Part shown: positions 4,389-27,930 of the stretch, one piece after another
Layout: each line of letters starts with the position of its first letter
How positions within the stretch are numbered: position 1 is the first letter of the stretch
Assembly: GCA_012329065.1 (NCBI GenBank)
Contig: JAAXPZ010000006.1
Span: 12,877-76,876 of the forward strand
Direction: 5' to 3'
DNA: 64,000 nt
DNA from: Sulfurovum sp.
GTDB lineage: Bacteria; Campylobacterota; Campylobacteria; Campylobacterales; Sulfurovaceae
Notes under the pieces: model-generated
The model's input: the letters and a program-made list of their open reading frames with translations, nothing else
The model's database searches: none
Told to the model about the DNA's origin: nothing
Position numbers and translations under genes: made by a program

Positions 4389-5216
4389 ATGGATAGACTA
4401 ATACTTAGTGATCTTGACTTTACACTGCTTAGAAGCGACCTAAGCATAAACAGCTTTACGCGAGAGACATGGAACAACTGTACAAGTAAGGCAAAATTAT
4501 CTATCGCAACTGCCAGAAGTTATACGGGAATCAAAGATCTACTCAAAGGGTTGATTTTAAAAGAACCACTTATATTACTAGATGGTACAATCATAGCTTC
4601 ACCTGATGGAGATATTTTGCATATGTCTGCCATAGACAAAAGTCTAGGTGATGAAGTTTTGTACATTGCACAAAAAAGTGTAGGGCTTTATCCGCTCATT
4701 GTGGCGTGGGAAAGCGAAGAAGAGCAATTTTTCTATCCAAAAGATCCAAGCTTTTACCAACAAGAGTTACTCAAAGGCATACACAATAAGAAAAGAATTT
4801 TTGCAAACAAAGAACTTAGAGCCAAAAACAATAATCTAAAGATTGTATTTCTGTCTAGCCAAGAGGAGGCACACATCTTAGTGCGTGCTTTAGACTCAGC
4901 ACTTGGTCAGCAGATAGAGATCAAAAGTGCACAAGATCCGTACATGGACTGCTACTTTACCACTATCTTGCACCCAATGGGAGACAAAGCACATGCACTT
5001 GCAAAACTGGAAGAGCTCGAGGGCATCGATATAGCCCACACCACAGTTTTTGGTGACAATCACAACGATATAGGCATGTTCAAACTTGCTGGCACTAAAA
5101 TTGCCGTAGCTAACGCGATAGATGGGCTAAAAGAGCTAGCTGATATCATTTTGCCTCATACCAATGATGAAGATGCAGTAGCCAGATACCTAAATGATAA
5201 AGTCTGCCGAGCTTAG
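4389..5216 (+). CDS. HAD-IIB (Cof-type) phosphatase family protein
   Basis: Motif I LSDLDFTLL near the N-terminus. Motif IV GDNHNDIGMF near the C-terminus. Confidence 0.75.
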   Translation: MDRLILSDLDFTLLRSDLSINSFTRETWNNCTSKAKLSIATARSYTGIKDLLKGLILKEPLILLDGTIIASPDGDILHMSAIDKSLGDEVLYIAQKSVGLYPLIVAWESEEEQFFYPKDPSFYQQELLKGIHNKKRIFANKELRAKNNNLKIVFLSSQEEAHILVRALDSALGQQIEIKSAQDPYMDCYFTTILHPMGDKAHALAKLEELEGIDIAHTTVFGDNHNDIGMFKLAGTKIAVANAIDGLKELADIILPHTNDEDAVARYLNDKVCRA

Positions 5217-12709: not shown

Positions 12710-15085
12710 TTACTGACAAGAAACACACTCCATGCTACGATCCTCCACCGTATCATCATCTGCCAATGCCTCTGGTGATTGGCTTCGTAGATAATATGTA
12801 GACTTGAGTCCAAACTTCCATGCTTCCATGTAAATATCATTGAGATACTTGCCGCTAACCTTGTCTAGTGAGATAAAGATATTGAGCGACTGTCCCTGAT
12901 CGATCCACTTCTGTCGGATAGCACCAGCACGAACCAAAAGCCTCTGATCCAATTCATAGCTAGGTATATAGTAGCTCCAATTGGCTGCAGATAGATTTGG
13001 CACTACTACCGGTATGTGACCTGACAGATTCTCCTCAAACCATTTTCTTTTGTAAACTGGCTCGATAGTCTGTGTGGTTCCTGTCAATATAGAAATCGAA
13101 CTAGTAGGTGCTATTGCCATAAGGTAGCCATTGCGCATACCATCTGTCTTGACTTTTTCCTTCAGTGCCATCCAGTCATGAGTATAACCAAACAGCCCAC
13201 CTCTGTCAACAAGTTTACACGCTTCAGGATTTGCCTTGTCTATGGGAAAAATTCCTTTATCCCAATCTGAGCCCTCAAATGTAGGATAAACGCCCTTCTC
13301 TAATGCCAAATCACTTGACGACCTAATCGCATAATAACTGACTGATTCCATTATCTCATCGATCTTTTCAAAATGCTCGCTACTACCCCACTCTATACTT
13401 GCTTCTGCTAGCATCTGAGCTTCTCCCATAACACCCAAGCCAATAGACCTACTCTTCTCGTTGGTCTTTTTAACTTTTGCAAGTGGATAGAAGTTTAAAT
13501 CAATCACATTGTCAAGCATTCGTATCGCTGTAGGGACTACTCTAGCAATATCTTCTGTGCTATGAATCTTGGAGAGGTTTATGGATGCCAGATTGCATAC
13601 TGCAGTGTCACCATCTATCTTCTCCTTGTCAACCATCCAGATTTGTTTACCGTTTATACTGTCGAGTGCTGTAATCTTTTTGGCGAGCTTTGTCATGCCA
13701 CTGTCAACAGTGACTGCCTCATCTTCTTCAAAGATTTCTATACTGCGGTCATCATAAGTAATTCTGATCTTATAATAATCTGGACTCGTATTTTGAAATA
13801 TCTCTGTGCATAGATTTGAGCTTCTGATTATTCCTGTATGCTTGTTAGGGTTTGCCCTATTGGCAGCATCTTTAAATGCCAAAAAAGGATTACCTGTCTC
13901 GAAATAACTTCTAAGTATATCTTTCCATAATCCCTTGGCAGAGATTACTTCTTTATTGATGCCCTCTTTTTGCTCCAGCTCTTCATATCTGACTACAAAA
14001 TCATCTCCGTACAGGTCTATCAATTCCTTGACCTCAAAAGGATCAAAAAGTGTCCACAATTCATCATTTTCTACTCGTTGCATAAAAAAATCATTTAACC
14101 ACATGGCAGGGAAAAGATCATGAGCCCTACGACGCTCTTCACCAGAATTCTTTTTTAGATCCAAGAAGTCCCTAATGTCGATATGCCAAGGCTCCAGATA
14201 TACAGCAATCGCACCTTTTCTGGTGCCTAGCTGATCTACAGCTATTGCTACATCGTTGGCAATTTTTAGGAATGGCACTATACCACCAGCAGCATGTTTG
14301 TGTCCATCAATGTATGATCCCATCCCTCTAACCTGTGTCCAGTCCCAGCCAATACCGCCACCAAACTTACTAAGTAGCGCCATCTCTTTGTAGGCATCAA
14401 AGATACCTTCAATGTTATCAGGTGTAGAGCCTATATAGCAAGAGCTAAGCTGATGCCTGGGTGTTCTGGCATTTGATAGTGTAGGTGTTGCTGCCATCAC
14501 TTCAAATTTACTGAGAATATCATAAAACTTCTTTGCCCAAGTCTGACAATCAAACTCATTTTGAGCCAAAAACATGGCCACTGCCATAAATAGATGCTGT
14601 GGTAACTCTATAGGGCTTCCATCTTTATCTTTGAGCAGATATCTGTCATAGAGTGTTTTGATGCCTAAATATGTAAACTGAAGGTCTCTGGCTGGGTGGA
14701 TATAGTCATTAAGCTCATCGAGATTGTATTTCTCCTTTAGTCCAAGCAGTATCCGACCTTCTGCTTCACCTTTCTCGAAATACTCTTTAAGGTGGGTATA
14801 GCCAGAAAAATGAGAGACTTTATGATAAATGTCGTACAGAAAAAGGCGCGAAGCGACAAATGTCCAATCAGGACGATCTATGTCAATCTTATCTGCGGCC
14901 GTATTAATCAGTGTTTGTTGTATCTCTGCAGAAGTAATCATATCTTTAAAATGTATCTTTGCATCTACTTCCAGTTCACTTTGGCTTACATTTGCAAGCC
15001 CTTCAACTGCAGCTGATGTGTATTTTTGTATTTTGGTGACATCTAGTGTCTCTATTCTACCGCTTCGTTTTACTACTCTTGTCAT
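12710..15085 (-). CDS. nrdA: Ribonucleoside-diphosphate reductase alpha subunit (class I)
   Basis: N-terminal ATP-cone (VVKRSGRIE..D..KI), NLC.EI active-site region, C-terminal Cys pair (CVSCQ). 791 aa. Confidence 0.95.
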   Translation of the reverse strand: MTRVVKRSGRIETLDVTKIQKYTSAAVEGLANVSQSELEVDAKIHFKDMITSAEIQQTLINTAADKIDIDRPDWTFVASRLFLYDIYHKVSHFSGYTHLKEYFEKGEAEGRILLGLKEKYNLDELNDYIHPARDLQFTYLGIKTLYDRYLLKDKDGSPIELPQHLFMAVAMFLAQNEFDCQTWAKKFYDILSKFEVMAATPTLSNARTPRHQLSSCYIGSTPDNIEGIFDAYKEMALLSKFGGGIGWDWTQVRGMGSYIDGHKHAAGGIVPFLKIANDVAIAVDQLGTRKGAIAVYLEPWHIDIRDFLDLKKNSGEERRRAHDLFPAMWLNDFFMQRVENDELWTLFDPFEVKELIDLYGDDFVVRYEELEQKEGINKEVISAKGLWKDILRSYFETGNPFLAFKDAANRANPNKHTGIIRSSNLCTEIFQNTSPDYYKIRITYDDRSIEIFEEDEAVTVDSGMTKLAKKITALDSINGKQIWMVDKEKIDGDTAVCNLASINLSKIHSTEDIARVVPTAIRMLDNVIDLNFYPLAKVKKTNEKSRSIGLGVMGEAQMLAEASIEWGSSEHFEKIDEIMESVSYYAIRSSSDLALEKGVYPTFEGSDWDKGIFPIDKANPEACKLVDRGGLFGYTHDWMALKEKVKTDGMRNGYLMAIAPTSSISILTGTTQTIEPVYKRKWFEENLSGHIPVVVPNLSAANWSYYIPSYELDQRLLVRAGAIRQKWIDQGQSLNIFISLDKVSGKYLNDIYMEAWKFGLKSTYYLRSQSPEALADDDTVEDRSMECVSCQ

Positions 15086-20280: not shown

Positions 20281-21105
20281 ATGAAAAGCAATGAAGAGCT
20301 AATAGGGCTTGCAAGCAAGAGATATGGTCAAAATTTTTTAAAAAATCATAGCTATATACAAAAAATCATCCAAGCGATGCCCAAAGATAATCTACCTATC
20401 GTAGAGATTGGGCCTGGCTTAGGTGATTTAACTAAAGAGCTCGTAAGAGCTAGAGATGTTACAGCTTTTGAAGTGGATAAGAGATTGTGCGAGCATTTAA
20501 TACATGAATTTGAGTTACCCATCCGTGAGGGTAGGCTGACTCTGAAATGTGCTGATGCTATTGAGCACTGGGAGCAGAAAGGACTACTGGATGAACATTA
20601 TCATTTAGTAGCCAATCTGCCTTATTATATTGCAACAAATCTTATCTTGAGGGCACTGCATGACCCATATTGTCAGTCTATTTTGACTATGGTTCAAAAA
20701 GAGGTAGCTATAAAGTTTTCAGCAAAGCCTACAGAGAGAAATTTCTCTGCACTGGGTGTACTAGCTGATAGCGTAGGGGAGGGGAAAATATGCTTTGAGG
20801 TTGAACCTGAAGCATTTGTTCCTCCGCCCAAAGTTACCTCTGCAGTACTCTCCATTGTCAAGTTTAGTTCACTGGACGACCTAGGATTTGAAGACTTCCT
20901 AAAGGTCGCTTTTTCTCAACCCAGAAAAAAGTTATCCAAAAATCTGAACTTGCGATACCAAAAGGATAGAATTATCAAGATCTTTGCCGATCTTGAGTTA
21001 GAAGATAATATCCGCCCACACGAAGCTGCGACATCTATTTATCATCAAATATATAATGCTTTAAAGCAAAAGGATAACGAAGATGAACGAAAATCAAGAA
21101 AATAA
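20281..21105 (+). CDS. rsmA: 16S rRNA (adenine1518/1519-N6)-dimethyltransferase
   Basis: [15 protein letters not shown] and NLPYYI motifs. Confidence 0.9.
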
Positions 21106-23164
21106 CAATAACAAACCAAAAAGAAACCCCAATCCATATAGACAAAATAGTCAAACGGTACAAAACAACAATCAAAATAGAGATAGCGACTCAAAAGAGC
21201 CAAGAAAAAGCAATGAGAGGCAAAACAACCAAAGCCAAAACAACAACAAGAGACCTCATCCAAATAGAAAACCAAACCCAAGCAGCAATTCTCAGGATGG
21301 GAAACAGCATCCAAGTAGAAAGCCAAACCCAAATGCCAACAATGGAAATCAAAGACCAAACAATAAATCTGGTAATAAAAATAGAGGCAGAAGAAAACCA
21401 ACACCGACAAATGTTTCTGAAGAGATGAAGGCCTGTCTTGCTGAAAATGAAAAAGTCCAACAAGAGAGAATGAGCCCGTGGAAACAAATAGAGATGAATT
21501 CTCGTGGCAAGATCCGCTTCACACCGCTTGGAGGACTGGGAGAAATTGGCGGCAATATCGCTGTCATGGAGAGCGAAAACTCTGCTTTTATCATAGATGT
21601 AGGTATGAGCTTTCCTGATGAGACAATGCACGGTGTTGATATACTTGTGCCTGATTTCAGTTACCTGCATGCGATTAAAGATAAAATCAAGGCTATTATC
21701 ATCACGCATTCACACGAAGACCATATTGGTGCTATGCCGTACCTATTTAAAGAACTAAAGTTCCCAATTTATGGTACTCCTTTAGCACTAGCGATGATAG
21801 AGAACAAATTTAATGAGCATGGACTTTCAGCTGACACCAAGTACTTCAATTTTGTTACCAAACGAAAGCAGTATGAGGTAGGGGATTTTAAAATAGAGTG
21901 GATGCATATGACTCACTCTATTGTCGATTCTTCCTCTTTAGCGATTGAAACACCTGTGGGCACCATTATTCATACAGCTGACTTCAAGATCGATCATACT
22001 CCAATTGATGGATACTCATCTGACCTGCACCGCTTTGCTTACTATGGTAGCAAAGGTGTGCTATGTCTATTCTCAGACTCTACCAATTCACATAACCCTG
22101 GCTCTACCAAAAGCGAAAAAATAGTTGGAAAAACATTCGACTCTCTTTTTGAACTAGCAAAAGGACGCGTCATCATGTCTACTTTCTCATCTAATGTACA
22201 TAGGATTGTACAGGCCATGGACAGAGGAATCAAGCATGGCAGAAAGATATGTGTAATCGGAAGATCAATGGAAAGAAACATTGAAACTACTAGAAAACTT
22301 GGATATGTTAACATTGAAGATAAACACTTCATAGAGCCTCATGAGATCGGAAGATACAAAGAAGAAGAGGTGCTCGTAGTCACCACTGGCTCTCAAGGCG
22401 AAGAGATGGCAGCACTCTCCAGAATGGCAAGTGATAAGCATAGGCACATCAAATTAAAGCCTACTGACACTGTAATCATATCTGCCTCTGCCATACCAGG
22501 CAATGAGGGATCAGTATCCAAACTAATGAATCGACTCATAAAAGCAGGAGTCACTGTCCGCTATAAAGAGTTTAGTGATATTCATGTATCTGGACATGCT
22601 GCACAAGAAGAACAAAAGCTCATAATTAGATTGGTGCAGCCTAAATTTTTCCTACCAGTACACGGAGAATACAATCATATTGCAGCACACGCCAAAACAG
22701 CTGTTGAGTGCGGTGTAGACAAAAGGAATATGCTTCTAATGACTGATGGTGACCAGATAGAAATCACAACAAAGTTTATCAAAAAAGTCAAGACAGTCAA
22801 GACAGGCAAACGCTATATCGACAACATGAACAACAAAGAGATATTTGATGATGTGGTAACTGACAGACAAAAGCTTGCAACTGACGGTATCATCAATGTT
22901 AGTATGCAGATTTCCACCAGTACAGGCAAGGCATCTGGCAAGACAGTTATTTCTACATTTGGTATCATCCCAGACAAAGATGACAAGAAGTTTGAAAAAG
23001 AGATAGAGCACATCATAGAAACCTATCTATTAACAAACAAAGATGATGGCTCAGTCAATGCAAAAAAAGTCGAAGAAGATATCAGAGGACTAGTGCGTAA
23101 GCATGTAGTGCGAATAAAAAAACTCTATCCAGTTATTGCTGTCAATGTATTCTTAGCAAATTAA
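21083..23164 (+). CDS. rnj: Ribonuclease J with a ~110-aa N/Q/K/P-rich N-terminal extension
   Basis: Metallo-beta-lactamase HSHEDH, beta-CASP region, HVSGHA. Overlaps the rsmA end by 23 nt. Confidence 0.9.
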   Translation: MNENQENNNNKPKRNPNPYRQNSQTVQNNNQNRDSDSKEPRKSNERQNNQSQNNNKRPHPNRKPNPSSNSQDGKQHPSRKPNPNANNGNQRPNNKSGNKNRGRRKPTPTNVSEEMKACLAENEKVQQERMSPWKQIEMNSRGKIRFTPLGGLGEIGGNIAVMESENSAFIIDVGMSFPDETMHGVDILVPDFSYLHAIKDKIKAIIITHSHEDHIGAMPYLFKELKFPIYGTPLALAMIENKFNEHGLSADTKYFNFVTKRKQYEVGDFKIEWMHMTHSIVDSSSLAIETPVGTIIHTADFKIDHTPIDGYSSDLHRFAYYGSKGVLCLFSDSTNSHNPGSTKSEKIVGKTFDSLFELAKGRVIMSTFSSNVHRIVQAMDRGIKHGRKICVIGRSMERNIETTRKLGYVNIEDKHFIEPHEIGRYKEEEVLVVTTGSQGEEMAALSRMASDKHRHIKLKPTDTVIISASAIPGNEGSVSKLMNRLIKAGVTVRYKEFSDIHVSGHAAQEEQKLIIRLVQPKFFLPVHGEYNHIAAHAKTAVECGVDKRNMLLMTDGDQIEITTKFIKKVKTVKTGKRYIDNMNNKEIFDDVVTDRQKLATDGIINVSMQISTSTGKASGKTVISTFGIIPDKDDKKFEKEIEHIIETYLLTNKDDGSVNAKKVEEDIRGLVRKHVVRIKKLYPVIAVNVFLAN

Positions 23165-23171
23165 GACTAAA

Positions 23172-23437
23172 GGGCTCCTCTAATAATAGGTAATGCCCAC
23201 AATGGGTTTTGCAAATGTAAGGTTGTGCAAAATATTTATAAGTCCTAGCCATAGCTAAGACGCCTTAAATATTTTGTGCAAGATTGCGTTTGCAAAGTCC
23301 ACCCTGCGGGCATCACTAGCTTTCGCCTATGCGTTGTTACTCTTTCTCACCTTAGCTACGGCTAGGGTATCAAAAGAGTGCCTAGCCTAGACAAAAGCTA
23401 GTGATGTTGTGGGTGTTACCTATTATTAGAGGTGCCC
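23172..23437 (+). ncRNA. Candidate structured RNA and/or MITE-like inverted-repeat element (unclassified)
   Basis: 31-nt terminal inverted repeat (28 WC, 2 G-U, 1 mismatch). Internal hairpin 23204-23300. 13-bp helix 23311-23323/23394-23406 enclosing hairpin 23338-23380 capped by C(UACG)G. Flanked by direct repeat CTAAAGG (23167-23173 and 23437-23443). Confidence 0.5.
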
Positions 23438-23454
23438 TAAAGGAGTAACCATAC

Positions 23455-24228
23455 ATGAGACTCAATAAGTTCATTTCGCACAATAGCAAATACTCTCGTA
23501 GAGAAGCGGACAAGCTAATCGAAGATGGTCTTGTCAAGCTGAACAAAAAAATTATAAATGAATTTGGGTACGAAGTACAAGATTCAGATATGGTTACAGT
23601 CAAAAATCGTGCAATCAAACAGAAAAAACAGGGTGAAGTGACCATGGTCATCTATAACAAGCCCAAAGGAGTGCTCGTCACCAGAAAAGATGATAGGGGC
23701 AGGGCGACAATCTATCATAAGCTTCCTGGTAAATATAGACATTTTATACCCATAGGTAGGCTCGACTATGTTTCAGAAGGACTTCTGCTTCTGACAGATG
23801 CTCCAGAGGTCGCAGAAGTGCTCATGACAAGTGACCTTCCAAGAACATACAACATCAAAATTGATAAATCCCCCTCACTACCCATGATTGATGCAATGAA
23901 AAATGGACTGCATCTGGAGGATGCCAGTACTGGGGCACACGAGTTCAGCAGCATTAAAAGTATGAATTTTGCCCCTTTTTCAAGTTTTGATTTTAGGGGA
24001 CAAACAGGAAAATATACAAAACTTCGCGTCACTATTGCTGAGGGTAAGAATAGGGAACTTAGAAGGTTTTTTGCTCATTTTGATGCGACTATAGTGGATC
24101 TAAAAAGGGTTGCCTTTTGGAATATAGAGCTAAATAATCTACCTACAAATAAAACACGATACTTTTCTCACAAAGAGTACGATCAGCTACACAAACTTCT
24201 CAAAAAAGTGAAGAAAAACGAGAAGTAA
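23455..24228 (+). CDS. rluB: rRNA pseudouridine synthase, RsuA/RluB family
   Basis: S4 domain MRLNKFIS...SRREADKLI and catalytic GRLDYVSEGLLLLT. SD AAGGAG lies 9 nt upstream. Confidence 0.9.
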   Translation: MRLNKFISHNSKYSRREADKLIEDGLVKLNKKIINEFGYEVQDSDMVTVKNRAIKQKKQGEVTMVIYNKPKGVLVTRKDDRGRATIYHKLPGKYRHFIPIGRLDYVSEGLLLLTDAPEVAEVLMTSDLPRTYNIKIDKSPSLPMIDAMKNGLHLEDASTGAHEFSSIKSMNFAPFSSFDFRGQTGKYTKLRVTIAEGKNRELRRFFAHFDATIVDLKRVAFWNIELNNLPTNKTRYFSHKEYDQLHKLLKKVKKNEK

Positions 24229-25425
24229 ATGCATTTTGCTCTCAAGTATCGCCCTTCAACACTTGACCAAATAATTGGACAAAGCCATATATTGGGTAGC
24301 AAAGCAGCTCTGAGGAAACTCATTGAGGCGGATGCCTTGCCTCATGTTTTTCTACATGGTCCTCCAGGATCAGGCAAGACCACCCTTGCAAGGGTCATCG
24401 CATCTGTGCTTGACAGACCATTCTACGAACTCAATGCCACTACGATTAAAGTAGAAACCCTAAGAAGCATATTCAAAGAACATATTAACGCTCTACAAAA
24501 GCCACTAATTTTTATAGATGAAGTTCATCGACTTAGCAAAAACCAACAAGAAGTATTGCTTCCGTTTATGGAAAACTATTCTGCTCTTATCATAGGTGCG
24601 TCTACAGAAAATCCATACTACTCTATGACTGCTGCAATGAGATCAAGATCGCATCTTTTTGAGCTAAATCATATCTCTGATGTCGCCATGTTTGAGTATC
24701 TAGATGTGATAGCGACAAAAGAAAATATCAAACTAGGTAAAGATGCAAGAGAATATCTAGTTGTCTCAAGTGCAGGTGACCTTAGGGCGATGATGAATCT
24801 TCTGGAAAGTGCCTCTGTTGTCGCCAATCCTATCACACTAGAGAACCTCAAGTCTATAAGATCACATGCCGTACAGGCTGGATCGAGTGAAGCTGACAGT
24901 CATTATGATCTCGCATCTGCCATGATAAAAAGCATTAGGGGCAGTGATATAGATGCTGGTATCTATTATCTTGCCAGACTCATTAGTGGCGGAGAGCCGC
25001 CTGAGTTTCTAGCCAGGAGACTAGCAATACTTGCCAGCGAAGATATTGGTAACGCCAACCCTCAGGCACTAAATCTAGCTGCCTCCACTCTAAACATAGT
25101 AAAAAATATAGGTTACCCTGAGGCTAGAATACCGCTGGCTCAGCTTGTAGTCTATTTAGCAAGTTCGCCTAAGTCTAACTCTGTGTATGAAGCCATAAAT
25201 AGTGCTCAAGAGGCAATCAAAGAAGGGGAGATATATGCAGTGCCTGAGCATATCAAAACACATAGTAAAAGCTATCTATACCCACATAGCTATGGAGGAT
25301 GGGTAGAGCAAAAATATCTAGAAAAAGAGTTTAGTTTTTACCACTCCAAGGGAAGTGGGTACGAAAAGATTTTAGACGAATGGATAATAAAGGGCACCCA
25401 GAAGATCAAAAAGTCTTCTACTTGA
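24229..25425 (+). CDS. rarA: Replication-associated recombination protein A (AAA+ ATPase)
   Basis: Walker A GPPGSGKTT, Walker B FIDEVHR, MgsA C-terminal region (YLARL...GEPP). The ATG directly follows the rluB stop. Confidence 0.92.
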   Translation: MHFALKYRPSTLDQIIGQSHILGSKAALRKLIEADALPHVFLHGPPGSGKTTLARVIASVLDRPFYELNATTIKVETLRSIFKEHINALQKPLIFIDEVHRLSKNQQEVLLPFMENYSALIIGASTENPYYSMTAAMRSRSHLFELNHISDVAMFEYLDVIATKENIKLGKDAREYLVVSSAGDLRAMMNLLESASVVANPITLENLKSIRSHAVQAGSSEADSHYDLASAMIKSIRGSDIDAGIYYLARLISGGEPPEFLARRLAILASEDIGNANPQALNLAASTLNIVKNIGYPEARIPLAQLVVYLASSPKSNSVYEAINSAQEAIKEGEIYAVPEHIKTHSKSYLYPHSYGGWVEQKYLEKEFSFYHSKGSGYEKILDEWIIKGTQKIKKSST

Positions 25426-27360: not shown

Positions 27361-27444
27361 TGGTACGGATGAGAGGAGTCGAACCTCCACGCCAAAGGCA
27401 CTAGATCCTAAGTCTAGCGTGTATACCAATTTCACCACATCCGC
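27361..27444 (-). tRNA. tRNA-Leu (anticodon TAG)
   Basis: Manual cloverleaf: 84 nt, long variable arm, anticodon loop CTTAGGA, TTCGACT T-loop, encoded CCA. Confidence 0.9.
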
Positions 27445-27501
27445 ACGATACATTGAAAAGTAACCTGAATTTTAGCTAAAGAAGCTTTAATTCAAATAAG
27501 G

Positions 27502-27578
27502 TGGTACACCCGTCAGGATTCGAACCTGAGACCGCCCGCTTAGAAGGCGGGTGCTCTATCCAGCTGAGCTACGAGTGC
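27502..27578 (-). tRNA. tRNA-Arg (anticodon TCT)
   Basis: 77 nt, anticodon loop CTTCTAA, D-arm GCTCAGCTGGATAGAGC, T-loop TTCGAAT, encoded CCA. Confidence 0.9.
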
Positions 27579-27620
27579 ACAAATACAATAATCAGCAATC
27601 TATATACTAAAGTTAAACCA

Positions 27621-27697
27621 TGGTACGCCAGAGAGGACTCGAACCCCTAACCCTCAGATCCGAAGTCTGATGCTCTATCCAGTTGAGCCACTAGCGC
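27621..27697 (-). tRNA. tRNA-Arg (anticodon TCG)
   Basis: 77 nt, anticodon loop CTTCGGA, T-loop TTCGAGT, encoded CCA. Confidence 0.88.
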
Positions 27698-27731
27698 ATC
27701 TTCTGTCAGGTTATGCTTTACCAAACTTAGA

Positions 27732-27808
27732 TGGGGTGGATGACGGGGCTCGAACCCGCGACATCCTGTGCCACAAACAGGTGCTCTACCAGCTGAACTA
27801 CATCCACC
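27732..27808 (-). tRNA. tRNA-His (anticodon GTG)
   Basis: Anticodon loop TTGTGGC. An extra 5' G(-1) pairs with C73, the hallmark of tRNA-His. Encoded CCA. Confidence 0.93.
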
Positions 27809-27853
27809 ATCAATAACTGCATAATTATTATATTGAAATATTAAATATCTAAA

Positions 27854-27930
27854 TGGTCGGAGTGAAAGGACTCGAACCTTCGACCCCCTGGTCCCAAACC
27901 AGGTGCGCTACCAGACTGCGCTACACTCCG
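27854..27930 (-). tRNA. tRNA-Pro (anticodon TGG)
   Basis: 77 nt, C1-G72 pair, anticodon loop TTTGGGA, encoded CCA. Confidence 0.93.

Follow-up and report, generated by a model that had tools for sequence, protein, structure and literature searches.

The stretch of DNA analysed here (hereafter, the window) comprises 64,000 nt from Sulfurovum sp., positions 12,877 to 76,876 of contig JAAXPZ010000006.1 in assembly GCA_012329065.1, and contains the genes rsmA, rnj (encoding RNase J), rluB and rarA arranged as a string in which neighbors overlap or abut, except for a gap of 290 nt between rnj and rluB; the gene coordinates thus confirm the packed organization and the single gap described in the original prediction, which was made from the sequence alone. 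Most of this gap is occupied by an element of 266 bp (Table 1) that has no coding capacity and that is, very probably, one copy of a MITE (miniature inverted-repeat transposable element), a non-autonomous DNA transposon, from a family whose multiple copies are scattered between the genes of many Sulfurovaceae-like genomes from vents. The insertion point is a TAAA site 3 nt past the stop codon of rnj and just 5′ of the ribosome-binding site of rluB, and the C-terminus of RNase J aligns with those of relatives, indicating that rnj is not disrupted. As had been anticipated, removal of the element plus one TAAA copy leaves a compact junction, TAA-GAC-TAAA-GGAG-TAACCATAC-ATG, and the predicted sequence of the empty rnj-rluB junction is AAATTAAGACTAAAGGAGTAACCATACATG. 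If the element were absent, rnj and rluB would be separated by only 20 nt in the window lineage. We found no open reading frame (ORF) of at least 60 aa within the element, the sole overlapping ORF (23382-23651, minus strand) being one that extends into rluB.

The 31-nt terminal inverted repeats of the element (GGGCACCTCTAATAATAGGTAATACCCACAA; arms of 31–32 nt, 91% complementary in the window copy) form a terminal stem, 23172-23202 with 23407-23437, that contains 28 Watson-Crick pairs, two G-T pairs and one mismatch. The minimum-free-energy fold contains this outer stem, hairpin A, the helix 23311-23323/23394-23406 and the inner hairpin with the C(UACG)G tip (23356-23361), and so reproduces all of the helices of the original prediction at the positions where they had been drawn; likewise, each arm of hairpin A carries the motif TTGTGCAA, with the two occurrences (23223 and 23274) reading in the same direction, as predicted. 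RNA folding gave −146.5 kcal/mol for the + strand (z = −13.7) and −132.6 kcal/mol for the − strand (z = −12.5), with none of 200 shuffles being as good in either case, while folding with DNA parameters resulted in z values of −14.1 and −11.7 for the two strands. The 110 predicted pairs of the window copy comprise 100 Watson-Crick, 10 G-T and no A-C pairs. The ribosome-binding site of rluB is essentially unpaired in the predicted fold, yet it abuts the 31-bp helix.

Table 1. Coordinates of the element, its parts and the adjacent genes (positions of the window unless another sequence is named).
Feature	Position	Strand or orientation	Basis and remarks
Left target-site duplication copy, TAAA	23168-23171		Family comparison
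MITE, 266 nt, termini GGGC...GCCC	23172-23437	+ (hairpin A then hairpin B)	Very probable identity; 40-copy alignment; nhmmer match to profile positions 1-266
Left terminal inverted repeat (5′ strand of outer stem)	23172-23202	+	Arm pairing; source of the search pattern
Hairpin A, ~45 bp	23203-23301	+	Predicted fold, family alignment
Mini hairpin CCC-TGC-GGG, 9 nt, at branch junction	23302-23310	+	Predicted fold, family alignment
Hairpin B, 13-bp perfect helix enclosing the C(UACG)G-tipped hairpin	23311-23406	+	Predicted fold, helices 5-8
Right terminal inverted repeat	23407-23437	+	Arm pairing
Right target-site duplication copy, TAAA	23438-23441		Family comparison
rsmA	20281-21105		Overlaps rnj; Pfam RrnaAD
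rnj (RNase J)	21083-23164	+	Stop codon intact, 7 nt before the element; Pfam RNase J domains
AAGGAG ribosome-binding site of rluB	23440-23445	+	Read from sequence; directly 3′ of outer stem, 9 nt before ATG
rluB-type pseudouridine synthase gene	23455-24228	+	Start 17 nt past the element; Pfam S4 and PseudoU_synth_2
rarA	24229-25425		Abuts rluB; Pfam MgsA_C/AAA (MgsA/RarA)
Sulfurovum mangrovi copy	L147 3960-4228; plasmid NZ_CP087125.1 95,690-95,960		

A single scan with the terminal-repeat pattern CCTCTAATAATAGGTAAYRCCC, covering one genome per species, retrieved 65 loci from 27 species-level metagenome-assembled genomes (MAGs), with up to 15 loci per MAG; the carrier MAGs are labeled as Sulfurovum, Nitratifractor, Sulfurimonas, Sulfurovaceae, Campylobacterales and similar. 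BLAST and nhmmer comparisons on these loci identified 39 full-length copies of 265–266 nt, in either strand and 72–94% identical to the window copy; there is no second copy within the 64-kb window and no match to the element among phage genomes and viral contigs. The terminal inverted repeats are kept across the 40 copies that were aligned together with their flanks, and in this alignment similarity ends sharply at GGGCACC and GGTGCCC, with unrelated sequences beyond. The 4 nt on either side match perfectly in 21 of 36 copies, as compared to 6.9 expected when left and right flanks of different copies are combined, and a 5-nt match occurs in none. The duplicated sites are TTAA, TAAA, TATA, TTTA and AATA (consensus TWWA); since the non-palindromic ones (TAAA, TTTA, AATA) appear as direct and not as inverted repeats, the matching flanks are a genuine target-site duplication with a length of exactly 4 bp. 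This modifies the 7-nt direct repeat CTAAAGG of the original prediction, which exists literally at 23167-23173 and 23437-23443 but of which only the central TAAA is a duplication, because C23437 and GG23172-23173 are the termini of the element and C23167 and GG23442-23443 are flanking nucleotides that match by chance.

Every copy is intergenic. Among those located between co-directional genes, seven are in the same orientation as the genes and nine in the opposite one, indicating that the family has no preference for the transcribed strand; relative to the upstream gene the numbers are around 14 and 15, respectively, while six copies have convergent and two have divergent neighboring genes. 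Full copies within a MAG share 94.5% (11 copies) or 98.0% (5 copies) identity, and those from different species-level MAGs reach up to 98.5%, which fits recent bursts of transposition plus either close relatedness of the hosts or horizontal exchange. The pair with 98.5% identity consists of the copies at L030 5711-5975, from a Campylobacteraceae-labeled MAG, and L011 6351-6615, from a Nitratifractor MAG (the L numbers designate our loci). A RluB protein identical to that of the window is encoded on four independent metagenome contigs (L001-L004), the samples with this rluB being SRR10294826, ERZ23487779 and SRR27899014/15. All four contigs break off within the element, at 23350, 23385 (twice) and 23413 of the window, which is 105, 70, 70 and 42 nt upstream of rluB, respectively; this is the behavior expected of a repeat or a long palindrome during assembly. 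One of these contigs has a C-to-G variant in the right repeat.

Scanning metagenome contigs with the RluB protein as a guide yielded 77 loci. In the eight with the closest rnj-rluB junctions (L070-L077; RluB 71–85% identical), rnj is directly upstream and the spacers, of 30–87 nt, do not contain the element; these spacers are unrelated in sequence and often hold a small hairpin, whereas more distant relatives have an extra gene between rnj and rluB. The short hairpins in the 50–87-nt spacers of L070-L076 differ among relatives (e.g., ccagacagcctctggctgtct in L073). Empty sites, which the original prediction had proposed to look for, were found for two other copies of the family. When the flanks of the copy in L052 are joined, the resulting sequence matches a continuous stretch of L034, from a different MAG, and its identity over the junction is 77%. 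Likewise, joining the flanks of the copy in L029 gives a sequence that aligns without interruption to five members of a second repeat family, the element being nested in the central loop of a repeat of this second family. Together, the numerous copies that differ in their flanks and have duplications of their own, the absence of the element from the junction of the closest relatives and the empty sites elsewhere support the MITE-like insertion that had been put forward as one of two possibilities.

The second repeat family is fully palindromic, of approximately 265 nt, and starts with the same ten bases as the first (GGGCACCTCC), followed by ATTGCCATTAAGTTAAG; the shared termini suggest that both families might be mobilized by the same transposase. 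Its members often adjoin those of the first family, and were located at L005 ~4950-5215, L019 ~1380-1640 and L030 ~1640-1900, as well as in L018, L024, L029, L055, L056 and L065. Apart from full-length copies, the first family includes copies truncated at contig ends, a subfamily of around 170 nt lacking hairpin A, and solo ends of 27 nt, with the short and solo derivatives each being flanked by their own duplications. The solo remnants (GGGYATTACCTATTATTAGAGGTNCCC), found at L044 5766-5796, L057 363-393 and L063 4121-4152 with their own 4-bp TTTA or TAAA duplication, look like near-complete deletions of the palindrome; that in L044 adjoins a tRNA-like sequence. A search of plasmids produced a single, diverged copy (71% identity) in a megaplasmid of Sulfurovum mangrovi, in which the interior and the outermost bases, GG(G/A)CAC...GCCC, are retained, while its terminal stem is different yet still complementary; this copy folds slightly better on the opposite strand. 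Additionally, a Nitratifractor MAG with many full copies contains a tandem array of hairpin A-like units (L011 103-490; 107-nt period, 3.6 copies, 85% matches), and a diverged hairpin B-like unit plus mini hairpin (CCCGAAGGG) occurs in a different sequence context at L017 ~5003-5110, which suggests that the element may have been assembled from reusable palindromic modules.

The fold is maintained in the family. RNAalifold predicted 103 pairs from 41 copies, 40 of them with compensatory double changes, and 98.2% of the pair cells on this structure are canonical; compensatory changes affect 15 of the 32 pairs in helix 2 of hairpin A. The + strand folds better in 34 of the 41 copies, by a mean of 7.8 kcal/mol, and the difference is reversed in the most distant copy. 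The original prediction considered the UNCG tetraloop as a hallmark of selected RNA structure; the window copy does have UACG at the tip of hairpin B, but so do only 14 of the 41 copies, and 12 others have a CCA triloop, so that the tetraloop is not a feature of the family. In the mini hairpin (CCC-NNN-GGG, alignment columns 132-140), the loop is TTT in 13 copies, TTC in 10, GAA in 8 and AAA in 6. These are two pairs of reverse complements (TTT/AAA and TTC/GAA), and all four variants are found inside one MAG. Such flips of the loop cannot arise at the RNA level, and reflect a DNA-level flip-flop of the small palindrome. Strand switching within quasi-palindromes during replication yields loop flips of this type; it also copies changes from one arm to the other, generating compensation without selection.

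The one-sided G-U bias, also proposed as an RNA hallmark, holds for the window copy but decreases to 6:1 in the consensus and is inverted in the most distant copy. The family totals over copies are 280 G-T versus 71 A-C pairs, although, because of the shared ancestry of the copies, the independent signal is restricted to six conserved G-U pairs versus one conserved A-C pair and the bias of the family consensus is only marginal; moreover, G-U and A-C are about equally represented among derived one-sided changes. The motif TTGTGCAA accounts for two of the conserved wobbles, which lie within it: hairpin A keeps the motif in direct orientation on its two arms, in 33 and in 36 of the 41 copies, respectively, and a motif that both arms needed as duplex DNA would make wobble pairing unavoidable. 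The free loops, the loop flips and the shrunken G-U asymmetry argue that the conserved fold is not evidence for an RNA function.

Several results nevertheless weigh against considering the element as just a MITE. Its interior is unusually structured and conserved for this type of transposon, with the 40 compensated pairs out of 103 contrasting with 17.6 in shuffles (none of 500 as high), a control that overstates the support since the copies share ancestry, and with a maximum of 10 in slid controls, in which pairing partners were shifted by 1–3 columns. Six G-U wobble pairs are kept in 36–41 of the 41 copies, and the S. mangrovi copy retains the interior while the sequence of its terminal stem was replaced. 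The compensation, the kept wobbles and the S. mangrovi interior leave room for selection of the fold beyond transposition. Also, no exact empty site was found at the rnj-rluB junction, the relatives examined being other species with diverged spacers; no database entry matches this RNase J protein exactly, and every contig with an identical RluB carries the element. Finally, an autonomous element or a transposase with matching ends was not found in 779 kb of loci, in viral contigs or in plasmids. Alternatively, the family could be a mobile structured-RNA module, with a three-branch fold selected at the RNA level for a role of its transcript in RNA metabolism and with transposition merely spreading it; such a module could act as a site for RNase III/RNase J processing, for protection or as an insulator, as a mRNA stabilizer, or as a small RNA with its own promoter. 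The high proportion of canonical pairs, the compensation well above both controls, the lower folding energy of the + strand, the six conserved G-U pairs versus one A-C and the interior of the S. mangrovi copy are all in favor, as is the RNase processing known for co-transcribed MITEs (PMC10969869). However, the unbiased orientation of the copies implies that the + RNA is not the form usually made, no promoter-like site was found within the element on either strand, the loops are unconstrained, and the loop flip-flop is a dynamics of DNA palindromes that would also give apparent compensation; the near symmetry of derived changes, the common ancestry that inflates the shuffle control and the explanation of two wobbles by the directly oriented TTGTGCAA further reduce the signal, and we consider this possibility unlikely.

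The other possibility contemplated by the original prediction, a dedicated cis-acting RNA of the rsmA-rnj-rluB-rarA operon (e.g., an autoregulatory target of RNase J or an intercistronic processing or insulator element), agrees with the position inside a tightly packed RNA-metabolism operon, with the very stable fold and with the small hairpins in the rnj-rluB spacers of relatives. Nevertheless, dozens of unrelated sites between genes carry the same sequence, in either orientation and without synteny, while the eight closest relatives, whose spacers are unrelated in sequence, lack it at the orthologous junction; moreover, it is bordered by a target-site duplication. Covariance-model searches against Rfam at gathering scores returned only tRNAs from the window and five copy-bearing loci, in agreement with the original prediction, which recognized no RNase P, tmRNA, 6S or SRP motifs; the one weak match that the element gave at permissive thresholds, to RT-2 (12.7 bits, gathering score 40, E = 1.1), was dismissed as noise. 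We thus give hardly any credence to a dedicated RNA. It is equally hard to believe that a Y1 (HUH) transposase mobilized the palindrome in the form of single-stranded DNA, either as a REP/BIME-like sequence with a RAYT or as a derivative of IS200/IS605. Both strands do fold strongly as single-stranded DNA (z = −14.1 and −11.7), the wobble pairs show a mild strand asymmetry, and the architecture is modular, with the 107-nt tandem array of hairpin A-like units and a separate hairpin B-like unit; but Y1 systems do not make target-site duplications, whereas most copies are flanked by a 4-bp duplication of variable sequence, and the element, with its 266 nt, greatly exceeds REPs in size and carries long terminal inverted repeats, while its ends lack the GTAG/CGTC heads described for REPs (PMC3733652).

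The terminal inverted repeats, the 4-bp duplication, the many copies, the empty sites and the lack of coding capacity are, together, the defining features of MITEs (PMC10969869), whose hallmarks include terminal inverted repeats, direct repeats, AT-rich intergenic targets and transcripts with stable stem-loops (PMC10969869); the one feature for which no match was found in the sequences searched is the parent element. As a MITE, the element would depend on a DDE transposase acting in trans, which would cut TWWA sites with a 4-bp stagger and recognize the GGGCACCTC termini. Its conserved fold would be kept mainly at the DNA level, through strand switching within the palindromes that copies changes from arm to arm and flips short loops, with master copies probably being also selected for transposition competence. 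No terminal-repeat pairs separated by 1–2 kb were found in any locus, the S. mangrovi megaplasmid contains no insertion sequence with the ends of its element copy, and the lone GGGCACCTCTAA ends present in L018, L036, L047 and L050 adjoin ordinary genes and not transposases. The lone 12-nt terminus in L047 (5200-5260; TATA-GGGCACCTCTAA), from a Nitratifractor MAG, is around 58 nt upstream of a gene for an S4-domain RluB/RsuA-like protein, which is probably a coincidence. A 19-nt exact match of the element end in 33 Lactococcus plasmids, lying in an unannotated spacer ~330 nt from an IS6 transposase gene, was discarded as due to chance.

The duplication and the ends point to the IS701 family and the IS5 group as candidate mobilizers, as a lead rather than as an assignment of membership. 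The IS5 group of the IS5 family generates 4-bp duplications at YTAR, which differs from the TWWA target of the element. In turn, the IS701 family has a highly conserved duplication of exactly 4 bp, as the element does, and a terminal consensus ---YACT (PMC2266710); the GGGCACC ends match Y-A-C but miss the T, that is, they agree in three of the four specified terminal positions. A literature search for TTAA-specific bacterial insertion sequences produced only papers on eukaryotic elements of the piggyBac type.

There are no promoter-like sites inside the element on either strand and no intrinsic terminator on the + strand, with a single weak terminator-like site on the minus strand, so that it would be transcribed within the rnj-rluB mRNA. 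In this transcript it would form a very stable, branched double-stranded structure, which lacks the U-tract of an intrinsic terminator. If Correia and ERIC elements are taken as analogs (PMC10969869), RNase III may cut the element, or the stability and coupling of both cistrons may change; any such effect on the rnj-rluB mRNA would be a side effect of the insertion and not its purpose. Elsewhere in the window, five tRNA genes are clustered on the minus strand (27364-27930).

For annotation, these results mean that the striking fold beside the RNase J gene should be masked as a repeat, being very probably a transposon copy, and not annotated as an RNA gene. They also define a repeat family of vent Campylobacterota whose ends are exact and whose 4-bp target is TWWA, and which includes deletion derivatives and has a sister family that shares its termini. 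The family breaks metagenome assemblies, as in all four contigs with an identical rluB, and could mark recent transposition or horizontal exchange, given the copies up to 98.5% identical across species-level MAGs. Additionally, the loops that are reverse complements of one another exemplify palindrome flip-flop in nature, and caution that hairpins of repeats can show compensatory changes without selection at the RNA level. If the co-transcribed copy were cleaved by RNase III, expression of rnj and rluB would be uncoupled in this lineage; were the family instead a mobile RNA module, the copy beside rnj would feed back on the expression of RNase J.

The element shares with prokaryotic MITEs (PMC10969869) its short length, the absence of coding sequence, terminal inverted repeats, a short AT-rich direct duplication, an intergenic location, multiple copies and a predicted stable stem-loop transcript, although MITEs usually pair at their ends only, whereas it is almost wholly base-paired in three branches with compensatory changes. 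We found nothing relevant in the literature on MITEs of Sulfurovum, epsilonproteobacteria or related vent Campylobacterota, and a 2024 review on MITEs does not mention Campylobacter or Epsilonproteobacteria (PMC10969869); the family of vent Sulfurovum-like bacteria thus appears to be undescribed. Its identity with Correia, ERIC, RUP, BOX or REP sequences was rejected because sequence, length and duplication differ. As REP/BIME sequences, it is an intergenic palindromic repeat found in mosaics with other repeats; however, REPs are of 20–40 nt, do not generate target duplications and are linked to RAYT transposases (PMC3733652), in contrast to the 266 nt, long inverted repeats and 4-bp duplication described here. 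The ERIC/IRU sequences of Enterobacteriaceae and Vibrionaceae are imperfect palindromes that occur in transcribed intergenic regions, in either orientation and with size variants due to internal indels, and ERIC affects mRNA decay in Yersinia (PMC10969869). The element is also an intergenic palindrome in either orientation and with size variants, but its sequence is unrelated and twice as long. ERIC is not known to have a clearly defined duplication or a transposase. Correia elements (CREE) are approximately 100–155 bp and duplicate TA, differing from the element in its 266 bp, its 4-bp TWWA duplication and the phylum of its host, and searches in Rfam and in phage and plasmid sequences revealed no similarity to them or to any other described family. 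Nevertheless, the Correia elements of Neisseria are MITEs that are often co-transcribed with their neighbors and in which RNase III cleaves the inverted repeats where these are paired (PMC10969869), and they are therefore the best model, by analogy, for what the copy described here may do to the rnj-rluB mRNA.

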